From Candidatus Saccharimonadota bacterium (GTDB taxonomy: Bacteria; Patescibacteriota; Gracilibacteria; UBA4473), in the NCBI GenBank assembly GCA_965228485.1, contig OZ245819.1, forward strand, positions 1,110,001 through 1,142,000: DNA of 32,000 nt, written 5' to 3'. The translations under genes were made by a program, and so were the position numbers. Positions 7,321 through 26,841 of the stretch are shown piece by piece. The notes beneath the pieces are model-generated. The model ran no database searches. It was given only the letters and a program-made list of their open reading frames with translations, and had not been told where the DNA came from. How positions within the stretch are numbered: position 1 is the first letter of the stretch; the number at the start of each line of letters is the position of its first letter.

Positions 7321-8331
7321 GTGCGTATGTGGTGGATTTATGGAGGAATAGGTTTTTTGTCAGGAATAATAGCGACTCTTGCCGCGGTAAAATTTTTTCC
7401 TCAATGGGGACTCTTGGATTTTCCGGAGAGATATGGGCTTAAACGAGATAAAATACCTTATCCAGGGGGGATAAGTTTACTGGTTTTTATTTGGGGATTA
7501 TTACTTATAGATTGGTCTTTTTGGGTTGTCGTACTTCCCGCAACAATTATTGGTTTAGTTTCCTTTATCGATGATCGAAATCCTATTTCTGCCAAATGGC
7601 GTTTGGGATTACAGATTTGGATGGCTATTTTTGTTTGGATTATGGGAGTCAGGATTTATTATGTTACGAATCCGTTTGCCGATACTAATTTTGAAATAAC
7701 CAATATTTACCCACATTTTGCTTTATTTTTAACCGTTGTTTGGATTGTTTCTATTCAGAATGCTTCAAACTGGTTTGATGGTTTAAAAGGCCTTTCTTTA
7801 GGCATTTCTGGTATTGGTTTTTTGACGCTTGGATTACTTGGGGTTTTGCGACCAGAACTCCTCTTTGATGTTCAGCATACAACGCTGACTTTGGCCAATT
7901 TTTATTTGGGAGGCTTGGTGTTTGGGGCTTTTGTTTGGTATTGGAGAGGGAAAATCCTTTTGGGAGATTCTGGTTCACAAGTATTGGGCTTCCTTTTAGC
8001 GGTTATGGCAATTTTTTCAGGAGCTAAAATTGCTACTACTTTACTTGTTTTGAGTTTGCCGATATTAGATTTCTTTTGGGTGATTTTTAGGAGAATTGTT
8101 ATTGATAAAAAATCTCCTCTAAAGGGAGATAAACGACACTTCCATCACCTACTTTCTCAACAGTTTGGAGAGAGGCTAGCAGTATTAGTTTGTTTAATTT
8201 TTTCCTTGTTTTTTGGAGCAATAGCTCTTTTCTTTAGTGGGGAGATTAAACTCTACTGTTTTCTATTTTTAGCAATTATTTTTGTGATTATTAACTTTTG
8301 GCTTTACCAAAAAATACGATTACAAAAATAG
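7321..8331 (+). CDS. Polyprenyl-phosphate N-acetylhexosamine-1-phosphate transferase (glycosyltransferase family 4, WecA/TagO-like rather than MraY)
   Basis: This is a multi-pass membrane protein. It has the motif NASNWFDGLKGLSLG (NxxNxxDGxDGL type) and the WecA-type motif GDKRHFHHLL. A perfect TATAAT at 7315-7320 sits just before the ATG at 7327, so the true start may be a leaderless ATG at 7327 rather than the GTG at 7321. Confidence 0.8.
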   Translation: MRMWWIYGGIGFLSGIIATLAAVKFFPQWGLLDFPERYGLKRDKIPYPGGISLLVFIWGLLLIDWSFWVVVLPATIIGLVSFIDDRNPISAKWRLGLQIWMAIFVWIMGVRIYYVTNPFADTNFEITNIYPHFALFLTVVWIVSIQNASNWFDGLKGLSLGISGIGFLTLGLLGVLRPELLFDVQHTTLTLANFYLGGLVFGAFVWYWRGKILLGDSGSQVLGFLLAVMAIFSGAKIATTLLVLSLPILDFFWVIFRRIVIDKKSPLKGDKRHFHHLLSQQFGERLAVLVCLIFSLFFGAIALFFSGEIKLYCFLFLAIIFVIINFWLYQKIRLQK

Positions 8332-8345
8332 TGACAGATTGGATT
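8332..8345. repeat. Left arm of a perfect 14-bp inverted repeat (TGACAGATTGGATT) bounding the GC-rich nhaA cassette
   Basis: This arm is the exact reverse complement of 10013-10026 (AATCCAATCTGTCA). It starts one base after the wecA-like stop codon (TAG at 8329-8331). Confidence 0.9.
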
Positions 8346-8594
8346 GAACCTCAGCCCATCGACTCACCTCCAGGAGCAGTACCGTGAAAGGAGGATTTTG
8401 TCGATGGGTGAGGCGAACTCTAGTACTGGGGAGTCTAGAGTTCTATCCTAGCACGGGGGCTTGTGCTAGGAATAAGAAACAGGGCTGGACTTTAGAGGCG
8501 CCAGGAGTCCTTTTGCTCAGGCCGCGTACGCCCTGAGCGAGGAAGTCCGCTTCCGTGTCGGGGGATTTTAGGTCCCGACAGGGAGGAAGACTTC
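8346..8594. other. GC-rich, hairpin-dense noncoding segment: candidate structured RNA or 3' UTR of unknown class
   Basis: The segment lies between convergent stop codons. It has stops in all frames and no ORF of track length. One line (8521-8580) counts 39/60 G+C. It forms seven consecutive stem-loops: 8349-8413 (5+9 bp outer plus CCTCC/GGAGG inner), 8415-8443 (9 bp), 8447-8470 (8 bp), 8487-8510 (5 bp), 8515-8538 (7 bp), 8541-8554 (5 bp with UCCG loop) and 8556-8580 (7 bp). Confidence 0.4.
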
Positions 8595-9839
8595 TTATGG
8601 GAGGTTGATCCTTTCTACCCGGCAGATTTTTCCGGCAACCAATGAGATCGGAACTCCAGCGAAACTGAAGACCGCGCCCATTTTTCCGGCTGCCATTACC
8701 AGTGCTTTTCCCTTGAATGCCACGTCTGCGACAAATAAGGCAACGGTAAATCCGATACCGGCGACACATCCTACTACGAATAGGTCGATTGTGCGCATTC
8801 CCTGAGGTAGACCAAAGGCTTTTTCTCCGAGCCACCCCATAAACAAAATACCCAGGGGTTTGCCAACAAGGAGTCCCAGCAAAACGAGCCAGGTAGCTTC
8901 GCCAATCGAAGCAAAGACCACTCCAGCATTTGCCAGTGCAAAGAAGAATAGCACGATTTCCACGACCCCACCGAGACGGTGCTCGAAGGCGTTGAGGGTG
9001 TCATCGAGAGACTTCTCCTCACGGGCGAAGAGACCCAGGTCAGATTCTGCATGAGGCATCGTTGGGATGATAGGAAGCAGTCCTAGCGCTGGATGAATGC
9101 CAGCGAACTGGAACCCCAACCAGCTGATGGAGCCACCAATCAGTAAGTATGGCCAAAAATTCAGCATTTTCAGTCCTCGGTTGAGGATGAAGTAGTTGAA
9201 GATCATAGCCGCTACTGGAAGGAGCATGTAGCCGATTTGGATTTCTCCTTGTGGATAGAAGACTGCCAGGATGATCAATCCAGCTGCATCATCAGCGATG
9301 GCCAACAGCAGTAAGAAGGCCACAGCTGGGTGATCCTTCCCAAATACCCAGCGGCCTACGAGATAGCTGAACGCGATGTCAGTCGCCGTCGGGATAGCCC
9401 AGCCATTCCCAACCTCTTCCAGAACACCCCAGAAGGTGGCCATCACGATGTAAACAGCGATAGGCCCGATCATGCCACCAGCGGTAGCAATGAGTGGGGT
9501 TGCTGCCTTTTTGCCACGGAGGCTTCCGCCTTTAAGCGCAACGGCTTCCCAGACTTCCTTTCCCGCAATCGCGAAAAACAGCGACATCAGGATATCGTTG
9601 ATCAGGAAGTGAACAGTCAGTTCTCGGTGTCCATGGTGGAGATGCCCGACCCAGTCGTTGGTCAGGATAATGTGGTGGGTGAAAGCGTAGTAGCTCTCAT
9701 AATTTTTATTGGCCCACCACATGGCCAAAAGGGCTCCCAGAATCAGGAGTAAGGAGTTTTCGCGGACGAAGGCCCACACTCCTCTCTTTGCTTGAGTTTC
9801 TGCCGACATGACAATTTTCCTGTCTTTGCCTCTCTTCAT
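8595..9839 (-). CDS. nhaA: Na+/H+ antiporter NhaA
   Basis: This is a 414-aa polytopic membrane protein with the NhaA hallmark LLLLAIADDAAGLIILAVFYP, which corresponds to the paired Asp of E. coli NhaA. Its G+C is far higher than its neighbours (33/60 and 35/60 in two counted lines). Confidence 0.92.
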   Translation of the reverse strand: MKRGKDRKIVMSAETQAKRGVWAFVRENSLLLILGALLAMWWANKNYESYYAFTHHIILTNDWVGHLHHGHRELTVHFLINDILMSLFFAIAGKEVWEAVALKGGSLRGKKAATPLIATAGGMIGPIAVYIVMATFWGVLEEVGNGWAIPTATDIAFSYLVGRWVFGKDHPAVAFLLLLAIADDAAGLIILAVFYPQGEIQIGYMLLPVAAMIFNYFILNRGLKMLNFWPYLLIGGSISWLGFQFAGIHPALGLLPIIPTMPHAESDLGLFAREEKSLDDTLNAFEHRLGGVVEIVLFFFALANAGVVFASIGEATWLVLLGLLVGKPLGILFMGWLGEKAFGLPQGMRTIDLFVVGCVAGIGFTVALFVADVAFKGKALVMAAGKMGAVFSFAGVPISLVAGKICRVERINLP

Positions 9840-9930
9840 TAGTCAGTCGAGAGGACTTTTTGGTTAAAAGGATAGGCTCTTGCGGATGCCTACAGTTACT
9901 CCGGTCAATGAAACGACCCTTAACTTTTTA

Positions 9931-9993
9931 CTTAAAAAGAGGTCCGCAAGGCCCTCGTCTAGATTTATAAAATCTAACTCGAGAGCCTCGCGG
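9931..9993 (-). promoter_or_regulatory. Long imperfect hairpin followed by a U-tract in the nhaA 5' leader (attenuator- or terminator-like)
   Basis: The minus strand reads CCGCGAGGCUCUCG-AG-U-UAGAUUU-UAU-AAAUCUA-GA-CGAGGGCCUUGCGG, then ACCUCUUUUUAAG. Two G:U pairs exist only on the minus strand and would be C/A mismatches on the plus strand, which fits the nhaA transcript orientation. The hairpin lies ~95 nt upstream of the nhaA ATG. Confidence 0.4.
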
Positions 9994-10012
9994 GGTATTT
10001 CTTATTTTTTAT

Positions 10013-10026
10013 AATCCAATCTGTCA
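10013..10026. repeat. Right arm of the perfect 14-bp inverted repeat (AATCCAATCTGTCA)
   Basis: This arm is the exact reverse complement of 8332-8345. G+C falls back to the host level just outside it. Confidence 0.9.
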
Positions 10027-10135
10027 AAGAACCGAACTTAACCTTTGTGGTTAAAGTTACGAAAAAAGACGTTTAAAATGCTGGCTTACCGCCAAAAATG
10101 TTTTGGTAGCGCAACACTTATAAAACATCGCACGA

Positions 10136-10164
10136 ACGATATTTTTAGATCATAAAATTGTCAA
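10136..10164 (-). promoter_or_regulatory. Putative sigma70-type promoter reading toward nhaA
   Basis: The minus strand has TTGACA (10164-10159), a 17-nt spacer and TATCGT (10141-10136). A second overlapping TTGACA lies at 10171-10166. This is a sequence match only. Confidence 0.25.
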
Positions 10165-10216
10165 GTGTCAAATAAGGATTTTTTACTGAATATAGTAACT
10201 CATACTTATCAAGATT

Positions 10217-11443
10217 TTAAAGTTGAGAGACGAGTGTTTTAAAATGTCGTCCTTTTGTTTCATAGTTTGGGTATTGATCGAAGCTTTTTCCAGCTGGGGA
10301 AAGGAGACAAACTTTTCCAGAAGGAGTAAGACTGAGTGCTTTTGAAACAGCTTCTTCTAAGTTATTGGTAATAACGAAATCTCTTTTTGGAAAAGTCTCT
10401 TTGATTTTTTTTGCTACAGGTGACTCCGTTAGGATAGTGGTTGTTTCTGGAGAAACCGTGTCTAATGTTTCAAAGAGTATATCAAAACTACCGCCTCCAT
10501 CAGTCCCCCCCAAAATTAACGTTCCGAGCTTTTTATTAAAAAATTTTATAGCCGCGATTACGGCTTCCGGATTTGTAGCAATAGCATCGTTAAAAAATGA
10601 TATCCCTTGTTTTGTATTGACGAACTCTAGACGGTGTTCTGGGAGTTGGAGTGTTTCAAGGCTTTCTAAAAAGTCTTGGTGAGTAAATTTCTTACCAATA
10701 ATTTCTGTTACTGCTGGGATAATCCCTAAATTACTTCGGAAATGTTCGGCCATAAAAATATGGTTTTCGAGGATTGCTTCGGTTGAGAGCGATTGAGTTT
10801 CTTGGATTTTTGCTTTTGTAGGAAAAGTATCGATGGTTGACTTTCCTAGAGGGGTGGTAATGCAATAGTCTTCAGTGTTTTGATGTCCCCAGAGTTGGCT
10901 TTTGGCACGACCATAATTCTGGAGTGTTTTGTGCCGATCTAAGTGATCGGGAAACAATCCAAGAAAGACGGCAATATGAGGAGATTTTTGGAGTATTTCT
11001 AGTTGATAACTAGACATTTCTAAAACGATATAGTCGTATTTTTTGGCCTTGAAGTCATTAAAAATTTCGAGTATTGGGTGTCCAATATTACCAGCGCAAA
11101 CAACGTTTAATCCAATGTGATTTAACCAGTTTGTTAGAGCTAGAGTAGTGGTTGTTTTCCCTTTTGATCCTGTAATTCCAATAACTTTTTTTCGTTCTTC
11201 TTCGGCAAGATTATTTAGAAACCAATTTATTTGATTCGTGACTTTGAACTGATGTTCTTTTGGGAGGGAATGGGGATCAATCCCGGGAGTACAGAAAATC
11301 AAATCATACTTATCCCACTCAGGTTCTGTGGGATGTGTTTTTTGATCAAAAATACTAATTTTGATCTCTGGATAAGCGTTCTGGAAGAATTTTTCGGTAG
11401 ATTTTCCTTCTCTTCCGTAGCCGTAAATAAGAATACTATTCAT
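10217..11443 (-). CDS. murD: Mur ligase of the MurD type (UDP-N-acetylmuramoyl-L-alanine--glutamate ligase)
   Basis: It has a MurD-like N-terminal Rossmann segment (ILIYGYGREGKST), the P-loop VIGITGSKGKTTTT and the C-terminal motif LLSPAGKSFDQYPNYETKGRHF. Confidence 0.85.
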   Translation of the reverse strand: MNSILIYGYGREGKSTEKFFQNAYPEIKISIFDQKTHPTEPEWDKYDLIFCTPGIDPHSLPKEHQFKVTNQINWFLNNLAEEERKKVIGITGSKGKTTTTLALTNWLNHIGLNVVCAGNIGHPILEIFNDFKAKKYDYIVLEMSSYQLEILQKSPHIAVFLGLFPDHLDRHKTLQNYGRAKSQLWGHQNTEDYCITTPLGKSTIDTFPTKAKIQETQSLSTEAILENHIFMAEHFRSNLGIIPAVTEIIGKKFTHQDFLESLETLQLPEHRLEFVNTKQGISFFNDAIATNPEAVIAAIKFFNKKLGTLILGGTDGGGSFDILFETLDTVSPETTTILTESPVAKKIKETFPKRDFVITNNLEEAVSKALSLTPSGKVCLLSPAGKSFDQYPNYETKGRHFKTLVSQL

Positions 11444-12773
11444 TAGTGATTGTTGTTATCACTGTTTTGAGTCGAGTCCAGATGTTACTTGGAATTTGAT
11501 GAGAATTCAATGTTTGGTAGTTGAAATTTTGTTCTGGGACTAAGTCATCTCGAATGGACTTTACTTCTGGAAAGTTCTTTTCAGCCAAAATCATTGATTG
11601 TCTTACTTCGTTGATAGTTCCGACACATTCAAAAGGTTTACTTTCTGTTTTTCCGAGTAGTTGATCAAAGGTTTCTTTAAGTTCTGTTTTTTCAAATAAA
11701 TTTTCGCCAAAGATTTGAGTGAGTTCTTCACGCTCAATAAATGGGGCAAGAATGGTAAATACAAACGCGCATTTTGGACACTCTCCACACCAGAAAAATT
11801 CTTTTTTATCACCGGTAAGGTGAAAATTTCGATTACAGGAACTGAAAGCGTTTTTGTACTTTTCCCAGCCTAATTTACTAAATATCTCAGCAATAAAGAG
11901 TTCGTCTAATGGTCTTAGGGCTGAAAAGTAATGTAGGCTAGGATGAATGAATTCTTCTATGTAGTGCTGCAGTTGTCTCTCGAAATCAAACGATTTTGAA
12001 TATTGATGGTTTATATCTAAATCTTGATAGTGTGTAGTGGCTTCGTTCGCTGAATTCTCATTTGAGAAAGCGATGTATTTTTTTCCTGTTAGTAGAGCTG
12101 TACAGATTGATAAAAATCCCCAGATAGCCGAAATAGGGATATGTCCGTTGTAAGCACCTTCCTTATTAAGTTCTAAAAGTGATTTATCGATATGCCTTTT
12201 GATCGTTATATGTTCATGATCTGGATTATCTTTCCGTATGATTTCTAATGTTTTTTCGAGTCCTGGGTAAGATCCAACGGTCCAGGTACAAAAGGGGATT
12301 TTAGCTTTTTTTAGTAATTCAATAGTGGTGAGAGAGTCTTTTCCTCCTCCAAGAGGCACAATAACCTCTGGTTTTAAAGATGAAGTTTTTGGTGTATTTG
12401 GAGAAGCATTATAAGGAAATTCGGGACGAATAATTGGAATCTGATTCTGATAAGAAAATTCTCCTAATCCGTGAGTATAAGTAGTGTTAAAGAATTCACT
12501 CTGTGCTTTTCCAAAACCTTGTAGATATTCTTCTGGAAGATTTATTTTTTTAGGAATCAAGGCTTTGTAGTAGGAGATTCCAGCCATTAGCCAGAGGCCT
12601 TCAAAAGCTTTGTTTAGGGCTTCTCGGTCGATCGTTGAAATGAACTCAAAGTCAAATTCAAAAGTCTCTGTGAAGTGATATTTATTATCAATAGCATATT
12701 CACAAGACAGGATTTTTTTTGAAGGATCCCAATTGAAATTTTCAAAGCTAAATATTTCGGCTCTATGGGGCAT
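11436..12773 (-). CDS. PP-loop ATP-pyrophosphatase-like protein coupled to murD; possibly a MurL-type UDP-MurNAc-L-Ala-L-Glu epimerase
   Basis: This 445-aa ORF has a PP-loop-like motif (VPLGGGKDSLTT) about 140 aa from the N-terminus and a Cys cluster (WCGECPKCAF). Its stop overlaps the murD start by 8 nt (ATGAATAG). The functional call is inference from context and size, not from a recognised signature. Confidence 0.55.
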   Translation of the reverse strand: MPHRAEIFSFENFNWDPSKKILSCEYAIDNKYHFTETFEFDFEFISTIDREALNKAFEGLWLMAGISYYKALIPKKINLPEEYLQGFGKAQSEFFNTTYTHGLGEFSYQNQIPIIRPEFPYNASPNTPKTSSLKPEVIVPLGGGKDSLTTIELLKKAKIPFCTWTVGSYPGLEKTLEIIRKDNPDHEHITIKRHIDKSLLELNKEGAYNGHIPISAIWGFLSICTALLTGKKYIAFSNENSANEATTHYQDLDINHQYSKSFDFERQLQHYIEEFIHPSLHYFSALRPLDELFIAEIFSKLGWEKYKNAFSSCNRNFHLTGDKKEFFWCGECPKCAFVFTILAPFIEREELTQIFGENLFEKTELKETFDQLLGKTESKPFECVGTINEVRQSMILAEKNFPEVKSIRDDLVPEQNFNYQTLNSHQIPSNIWTRLKTVITTITNE

Positions 12774-13713: not shown

Positions 13714-14316
13714 TTATCTCGTGGTCTTTGGTTTGATTACCATAATGCCATCATCTTCATCAAGTGGATAGATTGTATGATTCCAATCTGGGGTGTTACT
13801 CATAAAGTTCCAGAAATCTTCCATTTTGTACTTAAACTTCAGGACGTCGTCTACTACTATGACACCATTTTTGGCGAGTTTTGGACCCACAAGATGGAAG
13901 AAATCTAGCGTGCTTTTTTTGATTCCATCAATAAAGATGAAGTCAAAAGAACCAGATAATCTGGGAATAATTTCCTGTGCTCGACCAAAGTGCATCTCAA
14001 TGTTTTTTAACCCAGATTTTTTAACATTCTCTTGAGCTATCGCAAAACTCGGCGTGGAGTGGTCAAGGGTAGTAAGTTTTCCATTATTTTTCTGGAGAGC
14101 ATCGGCGATCCAAATAGTTGAATAGGCGTGTGCACAACCAATTTCTAACCCTTTTGAGAGTTTGTTTTCTTGAATGAGTGTGTGTAAAAAATTACCAACC
14201 TCCTTTGAGATACTTGGAACATTTCCTGCAAGGTCTTGAGTCTTGAACTGTTCTAGTAAGGCCAATAATTTTGTGTCCATCAGATTAGTTACTAATGGTT
14301 TCTTTAGTTTTTTCAA
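13714..14316 (-). CDS. Class I SAM-dependent O-methyltransferase (family 3, caffeoyl-CoA-OMT/YrrM-like)
   Basis: Motifs are LEIGCAHAYSTIWIA, GKLTTLD, FDFIFIDG and NGVIVVDDVL. The internal Met at 14280 (MDTKLL...) would remove the 32-nt overlap with the upstream gene and may be the true start. Confidence 0.8.
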   Translation of the reverse strand: MKKLKKPLVTNLMDTKLLALLEQFKTQDLAGNVPSISKEVGNFLHTLIQENKLSKGLEIGCAHAYSTIWIADALQKNNGKLTTLDHSTPSFAIAQENVKKSGLKNIEMHFGRAQEIIPRLSGSFDFIFIDGIKKSTLDFFHLVGPKLAKNGVIVVDDVLKFKYKMEDFWNFMSNTPDWNHTIYPLDEDDGIMVIKPKTTR

Positions 14317-15184
14317 TTCCTGTTATGAGATTTTCTTCCATGATTTTTTTCGCTTCGGCTAGAATGTCTTTAGTCGTTCTAGCATCTATATCTATGATAT
14401 CTCGGAAATAGTGGATTGGTGCTTGGTACACTGGGGTTTGACTAAGGGGGTTTGTCATTTGCTCGTAAGTATGGGGGAATGCTCCGTGGAGGCAGGCCGT
14501 TTTTACAACGAGTTGAGACGGAATATCGGGGCTTTTTTGTATAAAATCAATACTAGGAGCAATAAGAGTGTTTTGGAACTTTAGAAGTGTTCCGTTTCTA
14601 TTTTCTCGAGTTCCTTCAATAAAAGTCATCACCTTTTCGCCATCAATTATTCTTTGTCTTGTTTCTTCTCCAGTGGTTTTAGTGGCTGCTCTCATTGCTT
14701 GTGCTTGAGCCCTTGTTGGGGTGCCTTTTCGTGGGATTTTAGGCCGATCAACAATAATTGGGTTTAAGGCCTGAACGCCTTTTCCAATTCCAAAAGGGAG
14801 GTTTGCTAAACTATTCTTCAGGACAATGGCGACTTGCCCTGCGATTTCTTCTGCATATCGGGCATAGGCAGAATTTGCTTCAAGTCCGTGAGGATGATTA
14901 GAAATATCGAGCCTTGCCATGTTGGCAGCCTCTTCTGTTTCATCAAATCCATGAAGGTGGACCTCGATTCCTAGGGACTCAAGCCAATCTTCATGTTCTA
15001 ATGCCAGGACTCTCGCTTTTAACCGTGCGGCTTCTGGACTTTTACAGGATCGTACGGCACTTACTTTTCGGGCTGAGTCTAGTGTTAATCTGTAAGGGAG
15101 GGATTTTGTGACCACACGTCCTTGTGCTTCACAAATACAATGAATTTCTTCAAAACCATTTCCAATTCTTTCCGCGTTTTTCAT
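14285..15184 (-). CDS. Acyltransferase of the PlsC/LPLAT superfamily (1-acylglycerol-3-phosphate acyltransferase-like)
   Basis: It has the motif I-like SNHPHGLE (NHxxxxD/E type) and the motif III-like FIEGTRENRNG (FPEGTR type). There is no obvious N-terminal TM helix. G+C is elevated (28/60, 29/60 and 28/60 in three counted lines). Confidence 0.65.
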   Translation of the reverse strand: MKNAERIGNGFEEIHCICEAQGRVVTKSLPYRLTLDSARKVSAVRSCKSPEAARLKARVLALEHEDWLESLGIEVHLHGFDETEEAANMARLDISNHPHGLEANSAYARYAEEIAGQVAIVLKNSLANLPFGIGKGVQALNPIIVDRPKIPRKGTPTRAQAQAMRAATKTTGEETRQRIIDGEKVMTFIEGTRENRNGTLLKFQNTLIAPSIDFIQKSPDIPSQLVVKTACLHGAFPHTYEQMTNPLSQTPVYQAPIHYFRDIIDIDARTTKDILAEAKKIMEENLITGIEKTKETISN

Positions 15185-15189
15185 ATTGT

Positions 15190-15831
15190 TTAAGTATTGC
15201 TTGAGAGCTTAATGGCACCACTTATTTTTGCTATTATTTGCTCTATGCGTTCAAATCCTTTTTGATGTTCTCCAATTAATTGGCTGTGTTCTTCTGATAA
15301 TTTATCTCTTTTTACTTTATCTTTTTCCGTATGTATTTTTTTGCGTATGCGTTTAGTCTTTTGGTAGATATAGAATAGTTCGCCTAATTCCCCATGCCTA
15401 AGCATCCAAATAGCTGGAGCAGCCCTTCCAACATGAGGGATAGCTTCAATTAATGAAAATAAAACTTTGTTAGGAAGGCTAATCTTATTAGCTAGATATA
15501 GAGCCATAATAGCTCTAAAAGTTTTTATACCAGCGATAAAGGCTATTGTTTCTATAACAAGACTTTGAGGGTCATTTTGAATTTGATCAATATCATCGAA
15601 AGAAATATAAGCAGCAATTGGTATAACTACAGCTAAGTAAATTGCCTCTAGCTTCAGTGCTAGTTTTATGAGTTTTTGTATATCTTGATTTTGTAGTTGT
15701 TCAGCGACTTGTTCATATTGTTCTTCAGTAATATGCTCTTTGTCTCGTAAGTCTGTTATAAAGAGGAAAAAATCATTGTCTTGAAGTTCTTCTCTTACTG
15801 TTTCTGGCAGTTGTAGTTTATCTTGTTCCAC
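15190..15831 (-). CDS. Hypothetical membrane protein
   Basis: This 213-aa ORF has an acidic N-terminus, hydrophobic segments (AIYLAVVIPIAAYISF, IAFIAGIKTFRAIMALYLA) and a basic, coiled-coil-like C-terminus. I recognise no family. Confidence 0.6.
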   Translation of the reverse strand: MEQDKLQLPETVREELQDNDFFLFITDLRDKEHITEEQYEQVAEQLQNQDIQKLIKLALKLEAIYLAVVIPIAAYISFDDIDQIQNDPQSLVIETIAFIAGIKTFRAIMALYLANKISLPNKVLFSLIEAIPHVGRAAPAIWMLRHGELGELFYIYQKTKRIRKKIHTEKDKVKRDKLSEEHSQLIGEHQKGFERIEQIIAKISGAIKLSSNT

Positions 15832-19736: not shown

Positions 19737-21530
19737 ATGATGAGGATTCTTGGCTTTGTATTTATAACGGTCGGAATTTTTGGACTCAGCCACTATCTGA
19801 TTAATCAGAAATTGCCTGAGTGGGAATCTCGTACAATAGCGGTTATAAATGAAGCTCGAGAAGCGGAACTGGATGTTCAGGCTTGGGATCGGGTTGTCGC
19901 AAAAGCCGATCAAGAATTGCCTTGGTTTTATCCTTTTTCAAAGGTAAAAAAGGTCGTTAGGGAAGCTCGAACAATGGTCTATCGTACACATAATTTTGCG
20001 GATACGGTGAATATTGGATTTTCATTTGAAGATCGGGCGATTAATTCAGAAGGTCTTTTTGATCTCTTTACTTTTATGTCGGATCAATCAGCTTCTTTGG
20101 ATTCTATTATTGATGACATTCATAGCTTACCGTTATCTTTTTTGGATGAAGAAAAGAAAGTTTATGTACTTTCGGAATTGGCCTGGCTAGAATACTTAGA
20201 TCAGCAGCTTAAAGATGCTCAGACCTTTGAAAAAATTTTTAAGAAATTTGTGAAGGATGAAGAAAGAGTTTTAGTGCTTTTACAGAATCAAAATGAACCT
20301 CGTTCTACGGGAGGATTTGTTGGAAGCTTAGTACTTTTCGATTTTAAGAAAGATATTATTAATTGGCGATTTCTTGATATTTACGAACTCGATCGTTTAG
20401 TCCCGCCAGAAGCACAGACTCCAGCACCACCATTTTTTCACGGCTTATCTAAAACTATTTCACTTAGAGATGCTAACTTTTGGCCAGATTTTAGAACTAC
20501 CGCATCTGAATATAGATATTTTTTTGATGTTGTTGGAGAAGAGCCTCCTAAAACAATCGTGGCTATAAATCTTAACACGATCAAAGAGGTTGTAAATTTA
20601 GTAGGACCTATACAATTGGAAAAATGGGATTTGGAGTTAGATTCATATAACTTTGATGTGGTGCTACAGTTTCTTGTAGAGTCAAAAATTACTGGAAGAT
20701 TTGCGGTAAAGGAGCCTGTTGAGATATTTGCGGCTAAGCTCTTTAGTCCAGAAGCTTTATCTTCTTTGTCCTGGGAGGCTTTGAGCACTTTTGATGTTGA
20801 TGGATTTTTGTCTCAGAAAAATATTCTAGCCCATTCTCAGAATGTCTCTTTACAAAAGTTATTTGAAAAGTGGCGAATTGATGGTCAGTTGCGTCAGAAA
20901 AAAGAAGCGAATAACTTTTTGCATTTTGATTTTATATCGATTGGAGCGAATAAGTCTGAGAAATTTATGTGGACTAAGCTGATTCATGATAGCGAAATTC
21001 TTCCATCAGGGACGGTTAATAATACGCTTAAAATTCGAAGAACTCATGCGTTACGGCCAGGAGAGCTAAATGATTTACTTGGGACTAATAAAATGAGTCA
21101 AAATGTTCGGGAGTTAATTGATGAAACGCTTTGGTGGAAATTAGGAGCGGGGCAAAATAGAACGGTTTTAAGAGTTTGGGTACCACGAGAAGCTCGTTTA
21201 TTATCACAAAATAATCCTAGTGGAGTTATTCGAGAAATGGTCATTGCTGGTCATGATGATTTTAAAGTTTTAGAAATTCCTATGAATGTTCTTCCGAGTG
21301 AAACTTTGGATATTTCTTTAGTTTATGAGACTCGTATTGAAAGAGGTTCTTCGGCTTGGCGTCCTTATTTCTTGGAATTAATAGGGACTCCTGGAAAAGA
21401 TAAAACAGAGTTTTTATCTACTATTTCGACTCCTCAAAATAGTCAGTTTACCGCTGAAACCCAGAATATTGGGCTTCCTGTTTCTTTGATTGATCAGGAT
21501 TTTAGAACCGTTGTTGAATTTAAAAAGTAG
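19737..21530 (+). CDS. Membrane-anchored protein resembling the DUF4012 family
   Basis: It has an N-terminal TM segment (ILGFVFITVGIFGLSHYLI) and the motif LLQNQNEPRSTGGFVGSLVLFDF, which I recall as the DUF4012 signature (QN..E.R.TGGF.GS). The family call is from memory only. Confidence 0.55.
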   Translation: MMRILGFVFITVGIFGLSHYLINQKLPEWESRTIAVINEAREAELDVQAWDRVVAKADQELPWFYPFSKVKKVVREARTMVYRTHNFADTVNIGFSFEDRAINSEGLFDLFTFMSDQSASLDSIIDDIHSLPLSFLDEEKKVYVLSELAWLEYLDQQLKDAQTFEKIFKKFVKDEERVLVLLQNQNEPRSTGGFVGSLVLFDFKKDIINWRFLDIYELDRLVPPEAQTPAPPFFHGLSKTISLRDANFWPDFRTTASEYRYFFDVVGEEPPKTIVAINLNTIKEVVNLVGPIQLEKWDLELDSYNFDVVLQFLVESKITGRFAVKEPVEIFAAKLFSPEALSSLSWEALSTFDVDGFLSQKNILAHSQNVSLQKLFEKWRIDGQLRQKKEANNFLHFDFISIGANKSEKFMWTKLIHDSEILPSGTVNNTLKIRRTHALRPGELNDLLGTNKMSQNVRELIDETLWWKLGAGQNRTVLRVWVPREARLLSQNNPSGVIREMVIAGHDDFKVLEIPMNVLPSETLDISLVYETRIERGSSAWRPYFLELIGTPGKDKTEFLSTISTPQNSQFTAETQNIGLPVSLIDQDFRTVVEFKK

Positions 21531-21577
21531 GCATCTTTTTTTACTTTTTATTCTAAAAACTTAAATTCTGAATAACT

Positions 21578-26760: not shown

Positions 26761-26791
26761 AAAAAAAGAAGCTAAGAGGCTTCTTTTTTTT
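26761..26791 (+). terminator. Rho-independent terminator (bidirectional in form) after the 26208-26741 gene
   Basis: The stem is AGAAGC-TAAGAG-GCTTCT. It is preceded by an A-run and followed by a T-run, and lies 20 nt after the stop codon. Confidence 0.6.
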
Positions 26792-26808
26792 GTCTTAAAT
26801 TTTTTAAA

Positions 26809-26841
26809 TAAAAAAAGACCACCTTATGGTGATCTTTTTTT
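26809..26841 (-). terminator. Rho-independent terminator after rplL (bidirectional in form)
   Basis: The stem is AGACCACC-TTAT-GGTGATCT with one C/A mismatch. It is flanked by A- and T-runs and lies 20 nt downstream of the rplL stop on the minus strand. Confidence 0.55.

Follow-up and report, generated by a model that had tools for sequence, protein, structure and literature searches.

A horizontally acquired nhaA block, bracketed by a perfect 14-bp inverted repeat, in the apparent place of an aldolase gene in a Patescibacteriota genome

The nhaA block and its composition

The 32,000-nt stretch of Candidatus Saccharimonadota bacterium DNA analysed here (hereafter the window) carries a block of about 1.65 kb between a wecA/MraY-like glycosyltransferase family 4 (GT4) gene and murD. 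The only credible gene of this block is nhaA, intact and on the minus strand, and the two ends of the block are accompanied by the arms of a perfect inverted repeat of 14 bp. The block is horizontally acquired foreign DNA, because its composition is deviant, it is absent from the orthologous site of the related genomes and the phylogeny of its cargo is incongruent. The repeat is more difficult to explain and most of the discussion below concerns its origin. The features of the block are, in order:

8332..8345, no strand: left arm of the perfect 14-bp inverted repeat, TGACAGATTGGATT; 5/14 GC, host-like; its inner edge is the GC change point 8345-8348
8346..8594, minus strand: GC-rich (0.57) non-coding 3' flank of nhaA; five strong hairpins, none followed by a U-tract
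8595..9809, minus strand: nhaA, Na+/H+ antiporter, 404 aa plus stop (Pfam PF06965); probable start ATG 9809, the mechanical open reading frame (ORF) running from ATG 9839
9810..9995, minus strand: 5' flank of nhaA, of intermediate GC (~0.45); GC-rich two-tier hairpin at 9944-9993, fold z = -4.2
9996..10012, no strand: 17-nt AT-rich linker between the GC-rich hairpin and the right arm; 6% GC; weak, non-significant likeness to aldolase codons 8-15
10013..10026, no strand: right arm of the inverted repeat, AATCCAATCTGTCA

The G+C content (GC) is 0.52-0.545 between the arms and 0.35-0.39 outside them, and the GC at third codon positions (GC3) is 0.58 in nhaA versus 0.21-0.37 across 21 host genes. 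In tetranucleotide usage, the interval 8332-10026 is at a distance of 0.525 from the remainder of the window, more than 10 standard deviations above that of equal-sized background windows (0.226 +/- 0.029, maximum 0.336). These measures, all compared with the rest of the window, bear out the foreign composition proposed in the original prediction, an earlier reading of this stretch. The same reading took the arms as the limits of the GC jump, which is true of the left side only: a two-change-point maximum-likelihood fit places the left change at 8345-8348, the inner edge of the left arm, but the right change at 9805-9812, the start of nhaA, about 200 nt inside the right arm. Segment by segment, the GC is 0.41 in the 5' flank (9812-10012) or 0.45 if the AT-rich linker is left out (9812-9995), 0.06 in the linker itself (9996-10012) and 0.32 in the host spacer beyond the right arm (10027-10216). 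Both arms have a host-like GC of 36%, although 14 nt are too short to settle whether they are of host or foreign origin.

The nhaA gene and its relatives

The nhaA product matches Pfam PF06965 over residues 28-391 (E = 2.2e-58, 198 bits against a cut-off of 23.5); the NCBIfam NhaA models also match it, with scores below their curated cut-offs. The start at ATG 9809 is favored by an AGGAAA seven bases upstream and by the alignment with the closest homologues (P0002). The 404-aa protein contains the motifs ATD (residue 142), DD (173-174) and GKP (316), which we take to be the equivalents of E. coli D133, D163/D164 and K300, involved in ion binding or pH sensing. The protein should thus provide Na+(Li+)/H+ antiport, as judged from these motifs and its family. 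The original description of the interval as a single nhaA ORF with structured non-coding flanks and neither transposase nor integrase holds: besides the Pfam match and the folds of the flanks (see below), domain searches of the larger ORFs tested in the window (the apparent genes) yielded no domain of a transposase, an integrase or a recombinase.

The closest relatives of this NhaA are two proteins, P0002 and P0003, with 69-70% identity, followed among the matches listed by sequences of marine Rhodobacterales and other Alphaproteobacteria (53-62%, with the marine Rhodobacterales at ~60%). A profile search of genome contigs with the NhaA alignment likewise has Alphaproteobacteria among the matches listed. 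MurD, encoded on the same 1,295,315-bp contig, contrasts with this pattern: its named relatives are Patescibacteria at ~33-35% identity, and its closest relatives of any kind reach 45%. P0002 comes from a marine Patescibacterium of ~0.8 Mb, in which nhaA occupies another locus (nusA-nhaA-ppa), between ordinary local terminators. In a marine Patescibacterium of ~45% GC (L001, 6001-7200), the 70%-identical nhaA, again at a locus other than that of the window, has a GC of 0.51-0.57 that is above that of its neighbours, which suggests either separate acquisitions or an nhaA lineage moving among small genomes.

The donor lineage sought in the original prediction can be approached through the protein but not through its flanks. 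Neither blastn nor nhmmer found a homologue of the flanks in 80 alphaproteobacterial nhaA loci and L001-L003, and none was found in plasmids or phages, where the nhaA coding part alone matched (66-68% in three alphaproteobacterial plasmids). Since the flanks have no detectable homologue in any of these sets, the immediate donor appears to be unsampled. The signal in the protein points to a lineage of moderately high GC that is akin to the marine Alphaproteobacteria; the gene may have come from it directly or, possibly, via other Patescibacteria.

The corresponding site in related genomes

The four closest syntenic relatives (L004, L005, L208 and L209) have a MurD 43-45% identical to that of the window, and the GT4 of L004 and L005 is 58% identical. 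Upstream of GT4 they share two large proteins with the window, and the wider synteny continues with murL, bolA, grx, a Zn-ribbon gene, a methyltransferase gene, mutS, wzy and DUF4012. In 4/4 of them, murD is followed by a gene for a 297-aa class I fructose-bisphosphate aldolase, in the orientation that nhaA has in the window, and then by GT4 on the opposite strand. The 3' end of the aldolase gene abuts the GT4 stop or overlaps it by up to 35 nt. The composition of the aldolase gene is host-like in L004 and L005, the two that were profiled, and none of the four relatives has an inverted repeat around it. Convergent aldolase/GT4 3' overlaps of 4 to 35 nt are found at L005 8204-8238, L208 4059-4062 and L209 4507-4510, so that a shared terminator would not fit between the two genes.

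In the window, neither tblastn nor a DNA profile of the gene found the aldolase or a detectable remnant of it. A search with the aldolase of a relative, however, retrieved P0326, a protein of 297 aa, 71% identical and above the NCBIfam cut-off, which is encoded on a contig of exactly the same length, 1,295,315 bp; the same genome therefore retains an intact aldolase gene, outside the window. The comparison with the relatives indicates that the site is a re-used gene slot and not a simple gap between convergent genes, contrary to the original prediction, in which the block had been inserted between adjacent convergent host genes. The takeover of the slot by nhaA would have been tolerable because an aldolase gene is present elsewhere in the genome.

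This history bears on one explanation of the repeat, also put forward in the original prediction, according to which a pre-existing host hairpin (a terminator, or a stem left after the loss of the aldolase gene) was broken in its loop and captured the foreign DNA between its two stem halves. The arms are host-like in composition, they would form a stem of -20 kcal/mol, the left arm is followed on the minus strand by CUAUUUUUGU, and the disappearance of the aldolase gene from the slot of a genome that has it elsewhere makes an "empty" intermediate conceivable. Yet the four relatives, distant as they are (MurD <=45% identity), have neither hairpin nor empty site, but an aldolase gene that overlaps the end of GT4. 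Moreover, the clear host terminators of the window (e.g., 26761-26790 and 21521-21550) are short A/T-flanked hairpins of a style unlike that of the arms, and the pattern expected of an empty site has 0 matches in the metagenome collection, a search of little power given that no close relative is known. Three successive events (loss of the aldolase gene, formation of a hairpin and insertion) would also be required. The terminator version of this explanation and the empty site that it predicts between the wecA-like and murD orthologues find no counterpart in the relatives, and we regard a split hairpin as improbable.

The inverted repeat and its placement

The repeat finder recovers the two arms exactly as first described, at 8332-8345 and 10013-10026, with 14/14 complementary positions and 1667 nt between them. 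The left arm does start one base past the stop codon (TAG, 8329-8331) of the GT4 gene. Complementarity does not extend past 14 bp at either arm. No further copy of the 14-mer exists in the window, even with up to 2 mismatches, a search space of 32 kb in a genome of ~1.3 Mb. A scan of viral contigs has scattered single matches among the matches listed, the 14-mer being too unspecific for scans of whole collections.

A perfect repeat of this length could be a chance match in AT-rich DNA. The window contains two inverted pairs that match perfectly over at least 14 bp and lie no more than 3 kb apart, block shuffles have a mean of 0.58, and 34% of the composition-preserving shuffles hold at least one perfect 14-bp inverted repeat within that distance. 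The second pair (2144-2157 / 2585-2598), which spans the 3' part of a VanW-like gene and the start of an 846-aa ORF, is probably due to chance, given the shuffle mean per window. What chance does not readily provide is the bracketing of the foreign block: from the shuffle rate, we estimate at ~1e-5 the coincidence that the left arm falls only a few nt from the left change point and the right arm into the 400 nt that separate nhaA from murD. Although the repeat is no signature of anything by itself, this placement therefore connects it with the foreign block and is not due to chance. An assembly chimera, in turn, would need two joins 1.7 kb apart, both inside the same intergenic slot and with the host synteny perfectly kept to the left and to the right, and the contig is 1.295 Mb long. 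Taken together, a random match or a chimera is very improbable.

The exactly terminal position of the repeat, the single cargo gene and the lack of a transposase rather recall a non-autonomous passenger element, of the type of the mobile insertion cassettes (MICs) or of a miniature inverted-repeat transposable element (MITE) with cargo, in which the arms would serve as terminal inverted repeats for a transposase acting in trans from another locus. Like many IS3-type and Mu-type ends, these arms begin with TG...CA. The insertion of such an element within or next to the aldolase gene would have been followed by a deletion alongside it, with the loss of this gene and of one copy of the target duplication; transposon-mediated adjacent deletion would account for both absences. 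Single-gene MICs without transposase are documented (PMC5444012, PMC4337579).

Several observations argue against this explanation. No direct repeat of at least 2 bp abuts the arms (left flank ...AAAAATAG, right flank AAGAACCG..., that is, TAG against AAG), so a target-site duplication is lacking; the repeat has just 14 bp without extension; and the window has no second copy of it. A left end one nucleotide past the GT4 stop would need chance or selection. On the right side, the GC changes 200 nt inside the arm, and it is an AT-rich linker of host-like composition that adjoins the arm. No homologous flanks or repeats are found at the other nhaA loci examined. What remains of the passenger element of the original prediction is its perfect terminal repeat, without the target duplication, the extension and, in the 32 kb, the second copy or the transposase that would usually accompany it; we consider such an element unlikely, if less so than the split hairpin.

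The non-coding flanks and the pairing of the arms

The five hairpins of the 3' flank (8542-8594, 8515-8538, 8446-8471, 8415-8443 and 8348-8414) fold strongly on either strand (minus strand -111.9 kcal/mol, z = -6.7; plus strand -123.4 kcal/mol, z = -6.4). In the 5' flank, the hairpin 9944-9993 is followed in the nhaA sense by ACCUCUUUUUAAG and is terminator-like. Rfam searches returned nothing credible, whether on the block region (E <= 10) or on the whole window (gathering thresholds), and in particular no nhaA-I or other riboswitch; a search for tRNA genes found none. By eye, no RYYYAAC...GTTRRRY pair bounds the 3' flank hairpins as in an integron attC site, nor are Xer/dif-like sites seen. 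The stems of one hairpin (H5) had two matches in metagenomes, both within unrelated coding sequences, and they were attributed to chance.

Three further observations were made in the flanks. The plus strand of the 3' flank (8346-8594) has 11 GGA triplets where 5.9 are expected (P = 0.017); a CsrB/Rsm-like reading of this enrichment was discarded, as it is too weak and no Csr/Rsm-type Rfam family matches. The same strand has a strong Shine-Dalgarno-like sequence, AAAGGAGGA, at 8387-8395, before a 15-codon ORF. The 3' arm (9943-9955) of the upstream terminator-like hairpin has a second potential partner in the nhaA leader, the segment 9874-9886 (CCGCAAGAGCC in the nhaA sense); the predicted pairing would replace the hairpin's own 5' arm and represents a possible alternative structure.

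The terminator-like hairpin 9944-9993 and its U-tract separate nhaA from both the right arm and a promoter-like site in the host spacer. An nhaA mRNA made from its own promoter would therefore be without the right arm, and the gene may rely on its own 130-nt leader since the hairpin lies between the spacer promoter and the gene. Transcription would probably start from sequences imported with nhaA or come by read-through from the murL-murD side. Both arms would then be present only on read-through RNAs, which could close into a loop of 1.67 kb.

This possibility raises the question of whether the repeat has been kept for a function. In one version, the arms would form an RNA closing helix between the two ends of a read-through nhaA transcript, with effects on stability or on termination at the following U-tract. 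In a modelled RNA of 1820 nt, from ~10129 to beyond 8332, the arms pair with a probability of ~1.0 and their duplex has an energy of -20 kcal/mol; the match is perfect over its 14 positions, and the U-tract CUAUUUUUGU follows the left arm on the minus strand. The other version would be a crossover site of an invertible segment, by which nhaA flips between the murD-side and GT4-side transcription units; lying between two convergent units, the segment would be transcribed in either orientation. Opposed to these versions are the terminator-like hairpin between the right arm and nhaA, the lack of a recombinase in the tested larger ORFs of the window and the kinetics of a terminator with a 1.67-kb loop, which seem implausible. 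The locus is also represented by a single assembly and has no homologous counterpart in which conservation could be compared. The pairing of the arms on one nhaA transcript, suggested in the original prediction, is thus thermodynamically sound but interrupted by a terminator-like hairpin, and a functional repeat is hardly to be expected.

Origin of the block and of its repeat

The explanation that we favor, tentatively and with somewhat less than even confidence, is an integration by illegitimate recombination, with the repeat as a by-product of the junctions. The block would have been transferred horizontally from an unsampled, more GC-rich donor, whose NhaA has its nearest counterparts in marine Rhodobacterales and in two other small genomes, and would have been fixed in the aldolase slot through illegitimate, transposase-independent recombination. 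The 14-bp repeat, which lies in host-like DNA at the two junction zones, would then be a short templated inverted copy made during integration or repair and not the ends of a mobile element.

It is tempting to look for the source of such a copy in the aldolase gene. In the relatives, the position of the left arm is that at which the final codons of the aldolase gene overlap the GT4 stop. Read in the aldolase frame, 8350-8333 gives GSIQSV, which ranks first among all six-frame matches of the window to the relatives' C-terminal motif xSI[QE]xI, and 10014-9991 gives L*KIRNTP, which ranks 9th of 63,954 against aldolase residues 8-15. These motifs were nevertheless picked after the matches had been seen. 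When the best terminal motif of the region is compared with random regions, the only significant control is the C-terminal side at k = 6 (P = 0.013), and nucleotide alignments to the aldolase ends do not stand out (5' P = 0.23, 3' P = 0.26). The derivation of the arms from the ends of the host aldolase gene is therefore a lead and not a result.

A number of points weigh against integration by illegitimate recombination. The other controls of the aldolase traces are not significant, be it the terminal motif on the N-terminal side (P = 0.20), that on the C-terminal side at k = 8 (P = 0.32) or frameshift-aware alignments to the aldolase ends (N-terminal P = 0.18, C-terminal P = 0.11), and nhmmer with an aldolase DNA profile finds no remnant in the window. 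The right arm is 17-20 nt away from the nearest clearly foreign sequence and so not strictly at the junction. A repeat that matches at 14/14 positions and lies exactly at the two ends has the very appearance of terminal inverted repeats, and further copies of the 14-mer were sought in only 32 kb of the 1.3-Mb genome. Finally, the templated junction scar is arrived at by exclusion, the repeat bearing no direct sign of its origin.

A more ambitious hypothesis is that the arms mark a transposase-free swap of whole genes in a fixed slot of ultra-small genomes of the candidate phyla radiation (CPR), in which a cassette-exchange mechanism has not yet been described. In that case, an enzyme encoded at another locus would recognise the arms as its ends, or a hairpin-based capture reaction would have produced them. 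We judge such a mechanism decidedly improbable.

Whatever its route, the acquisition gave an ion-homeostasis gene to a genome-reduced marine Patescibacterium, and a Na+/H+ antiporter is an asset under saline or alkaline conditions. The donor signal may be a clue to the bacteria that live alongside this host. The locus also illustrates how a housekeeping slot can be re-used in a streamlined genome while the displaced gene survives elsewhere. If the repeat recurs at other foreign genes of the genome, a mechanism of capture or exchange not described before would be indicated; without such recurrence, the repeat would be a one-off recombination scar.

Neighbouring genes and other features of the window

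The immediate surroundings of the block are the following:

7321..8331, plus strand: glycosyltransferase family 4 gene (wecA/MraY-like), left neighbour; intact; 58% identical to the L004 and L005 orthologues
10027..10216, minus strand: host-like AT-rich spacer from the murD stop to the right arm; GC 0.32
10217..11443, minus strand: murD, right neighbour; TIGR01087 259 bits, above cut-off
11436-12773, minus strand: MurL-like epimerase gene, upstream of murD; NCBIfam MurL E = 2.5e-104, below the curated cut-off

A promoter scan of the host spacer found a promoter-like TTGACA-17-TATCGT at 10164..10136, which faces nhaA. The profile of the relatives' aldolase promoter has a weak match in the same spacer (10125-10091; nhmmer E = 2.3), the second-best of the window. 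Several homologues of the window MurD carry the JGI name L-glutamate ligase, and the murD and MurL-like pair (10217-12773) may correspond to the MurD2/MurL route to D-Glu in peptidoglycan.

Farther away, between a 177-aa ORF and the L7/L12 gene, A-run/T-run hairpins overlap in a cluster (26761-26841) that resembles a bidirectional terminator region and is of the host's usual terminator style. Between the methyltransferase gene and mutS, an acyltransferase-like gene lies in a mild GC bump (0.42-0.44), together with an adjoining 213-aa ORF (14285-15831, minus strand). L004 has nothing at this position and L005 has different genes, which makes it a second variable slot.

Comparison with known systems

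The nhaA block shares partial likenesses with several kinds of elements. Mobile insertion cassettes such as MIC231 of Bacillus cereus resemble the block in that they lack a transposase, carry a single passenger gene or a few, and end in inverted repeats on either side. Their ends, however, match a known insertion sequence (IS) or transposon (Tn) family, are usually longer, have target duplications and recur in the genome, none of which is seen for the nhaA block in the window. Other cassettes of this kind are that of qnrS2 in Aeromonas plasmids (PMC5444012) and the Xanthomonas MICs (PMC4337579).

Some inserts target hairpins. IS1397 and ISKpn1 insert into the loops of repetitive extragenic palindromic sequences and bacterial interspersed mosaic elements (REP/BIME), and group IIC introns insert next to terminator stems. 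Such inserts are, like the block, bracketed by stem-loop arms of the host or adjoining them, but they encode their own transposase or reverse transcriptase and target families of repeated host hairpins, whereas the block has neither an enzyme gene nor a sign of a prior hairpin.

An integron gene cassette likewise consists of one ORF with a structured, imperfectly palindromic region on its 3' side and lacks a mobility gene. In contrast to such a cassette, the nhaA flanks have no attC core sites by eye, no integrase was found in the tested larger ORFs of the window, and the block has no neighbouring cassettes. Invertible DNA segments (invertons, Hin/Gin-type systems) resemble the block in that short inverted repeats bound a segment between transcription units; they differ in that the block has no nearby recombinase, is foreign in composition and gives no evidence for two orientations.

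The closest likeness is to the small genomic islets acquired by horizontal transfer, with which the block shares atypical GC, GC3 and tetranucleotide usage, an incongruent cargo, the absence from the relatives' site and an adaptive transporter as cargo. Unlike these islets, it stands in the exact place of a housekeeping gene and not in a tRNA or intergenic hotspot, and it is bordered by a perfect inverted repeat without integrase or direct repeats. The nhaA block is thus a horizontally acquired single-gene islet, an element of a known kind whose borders are unusual.

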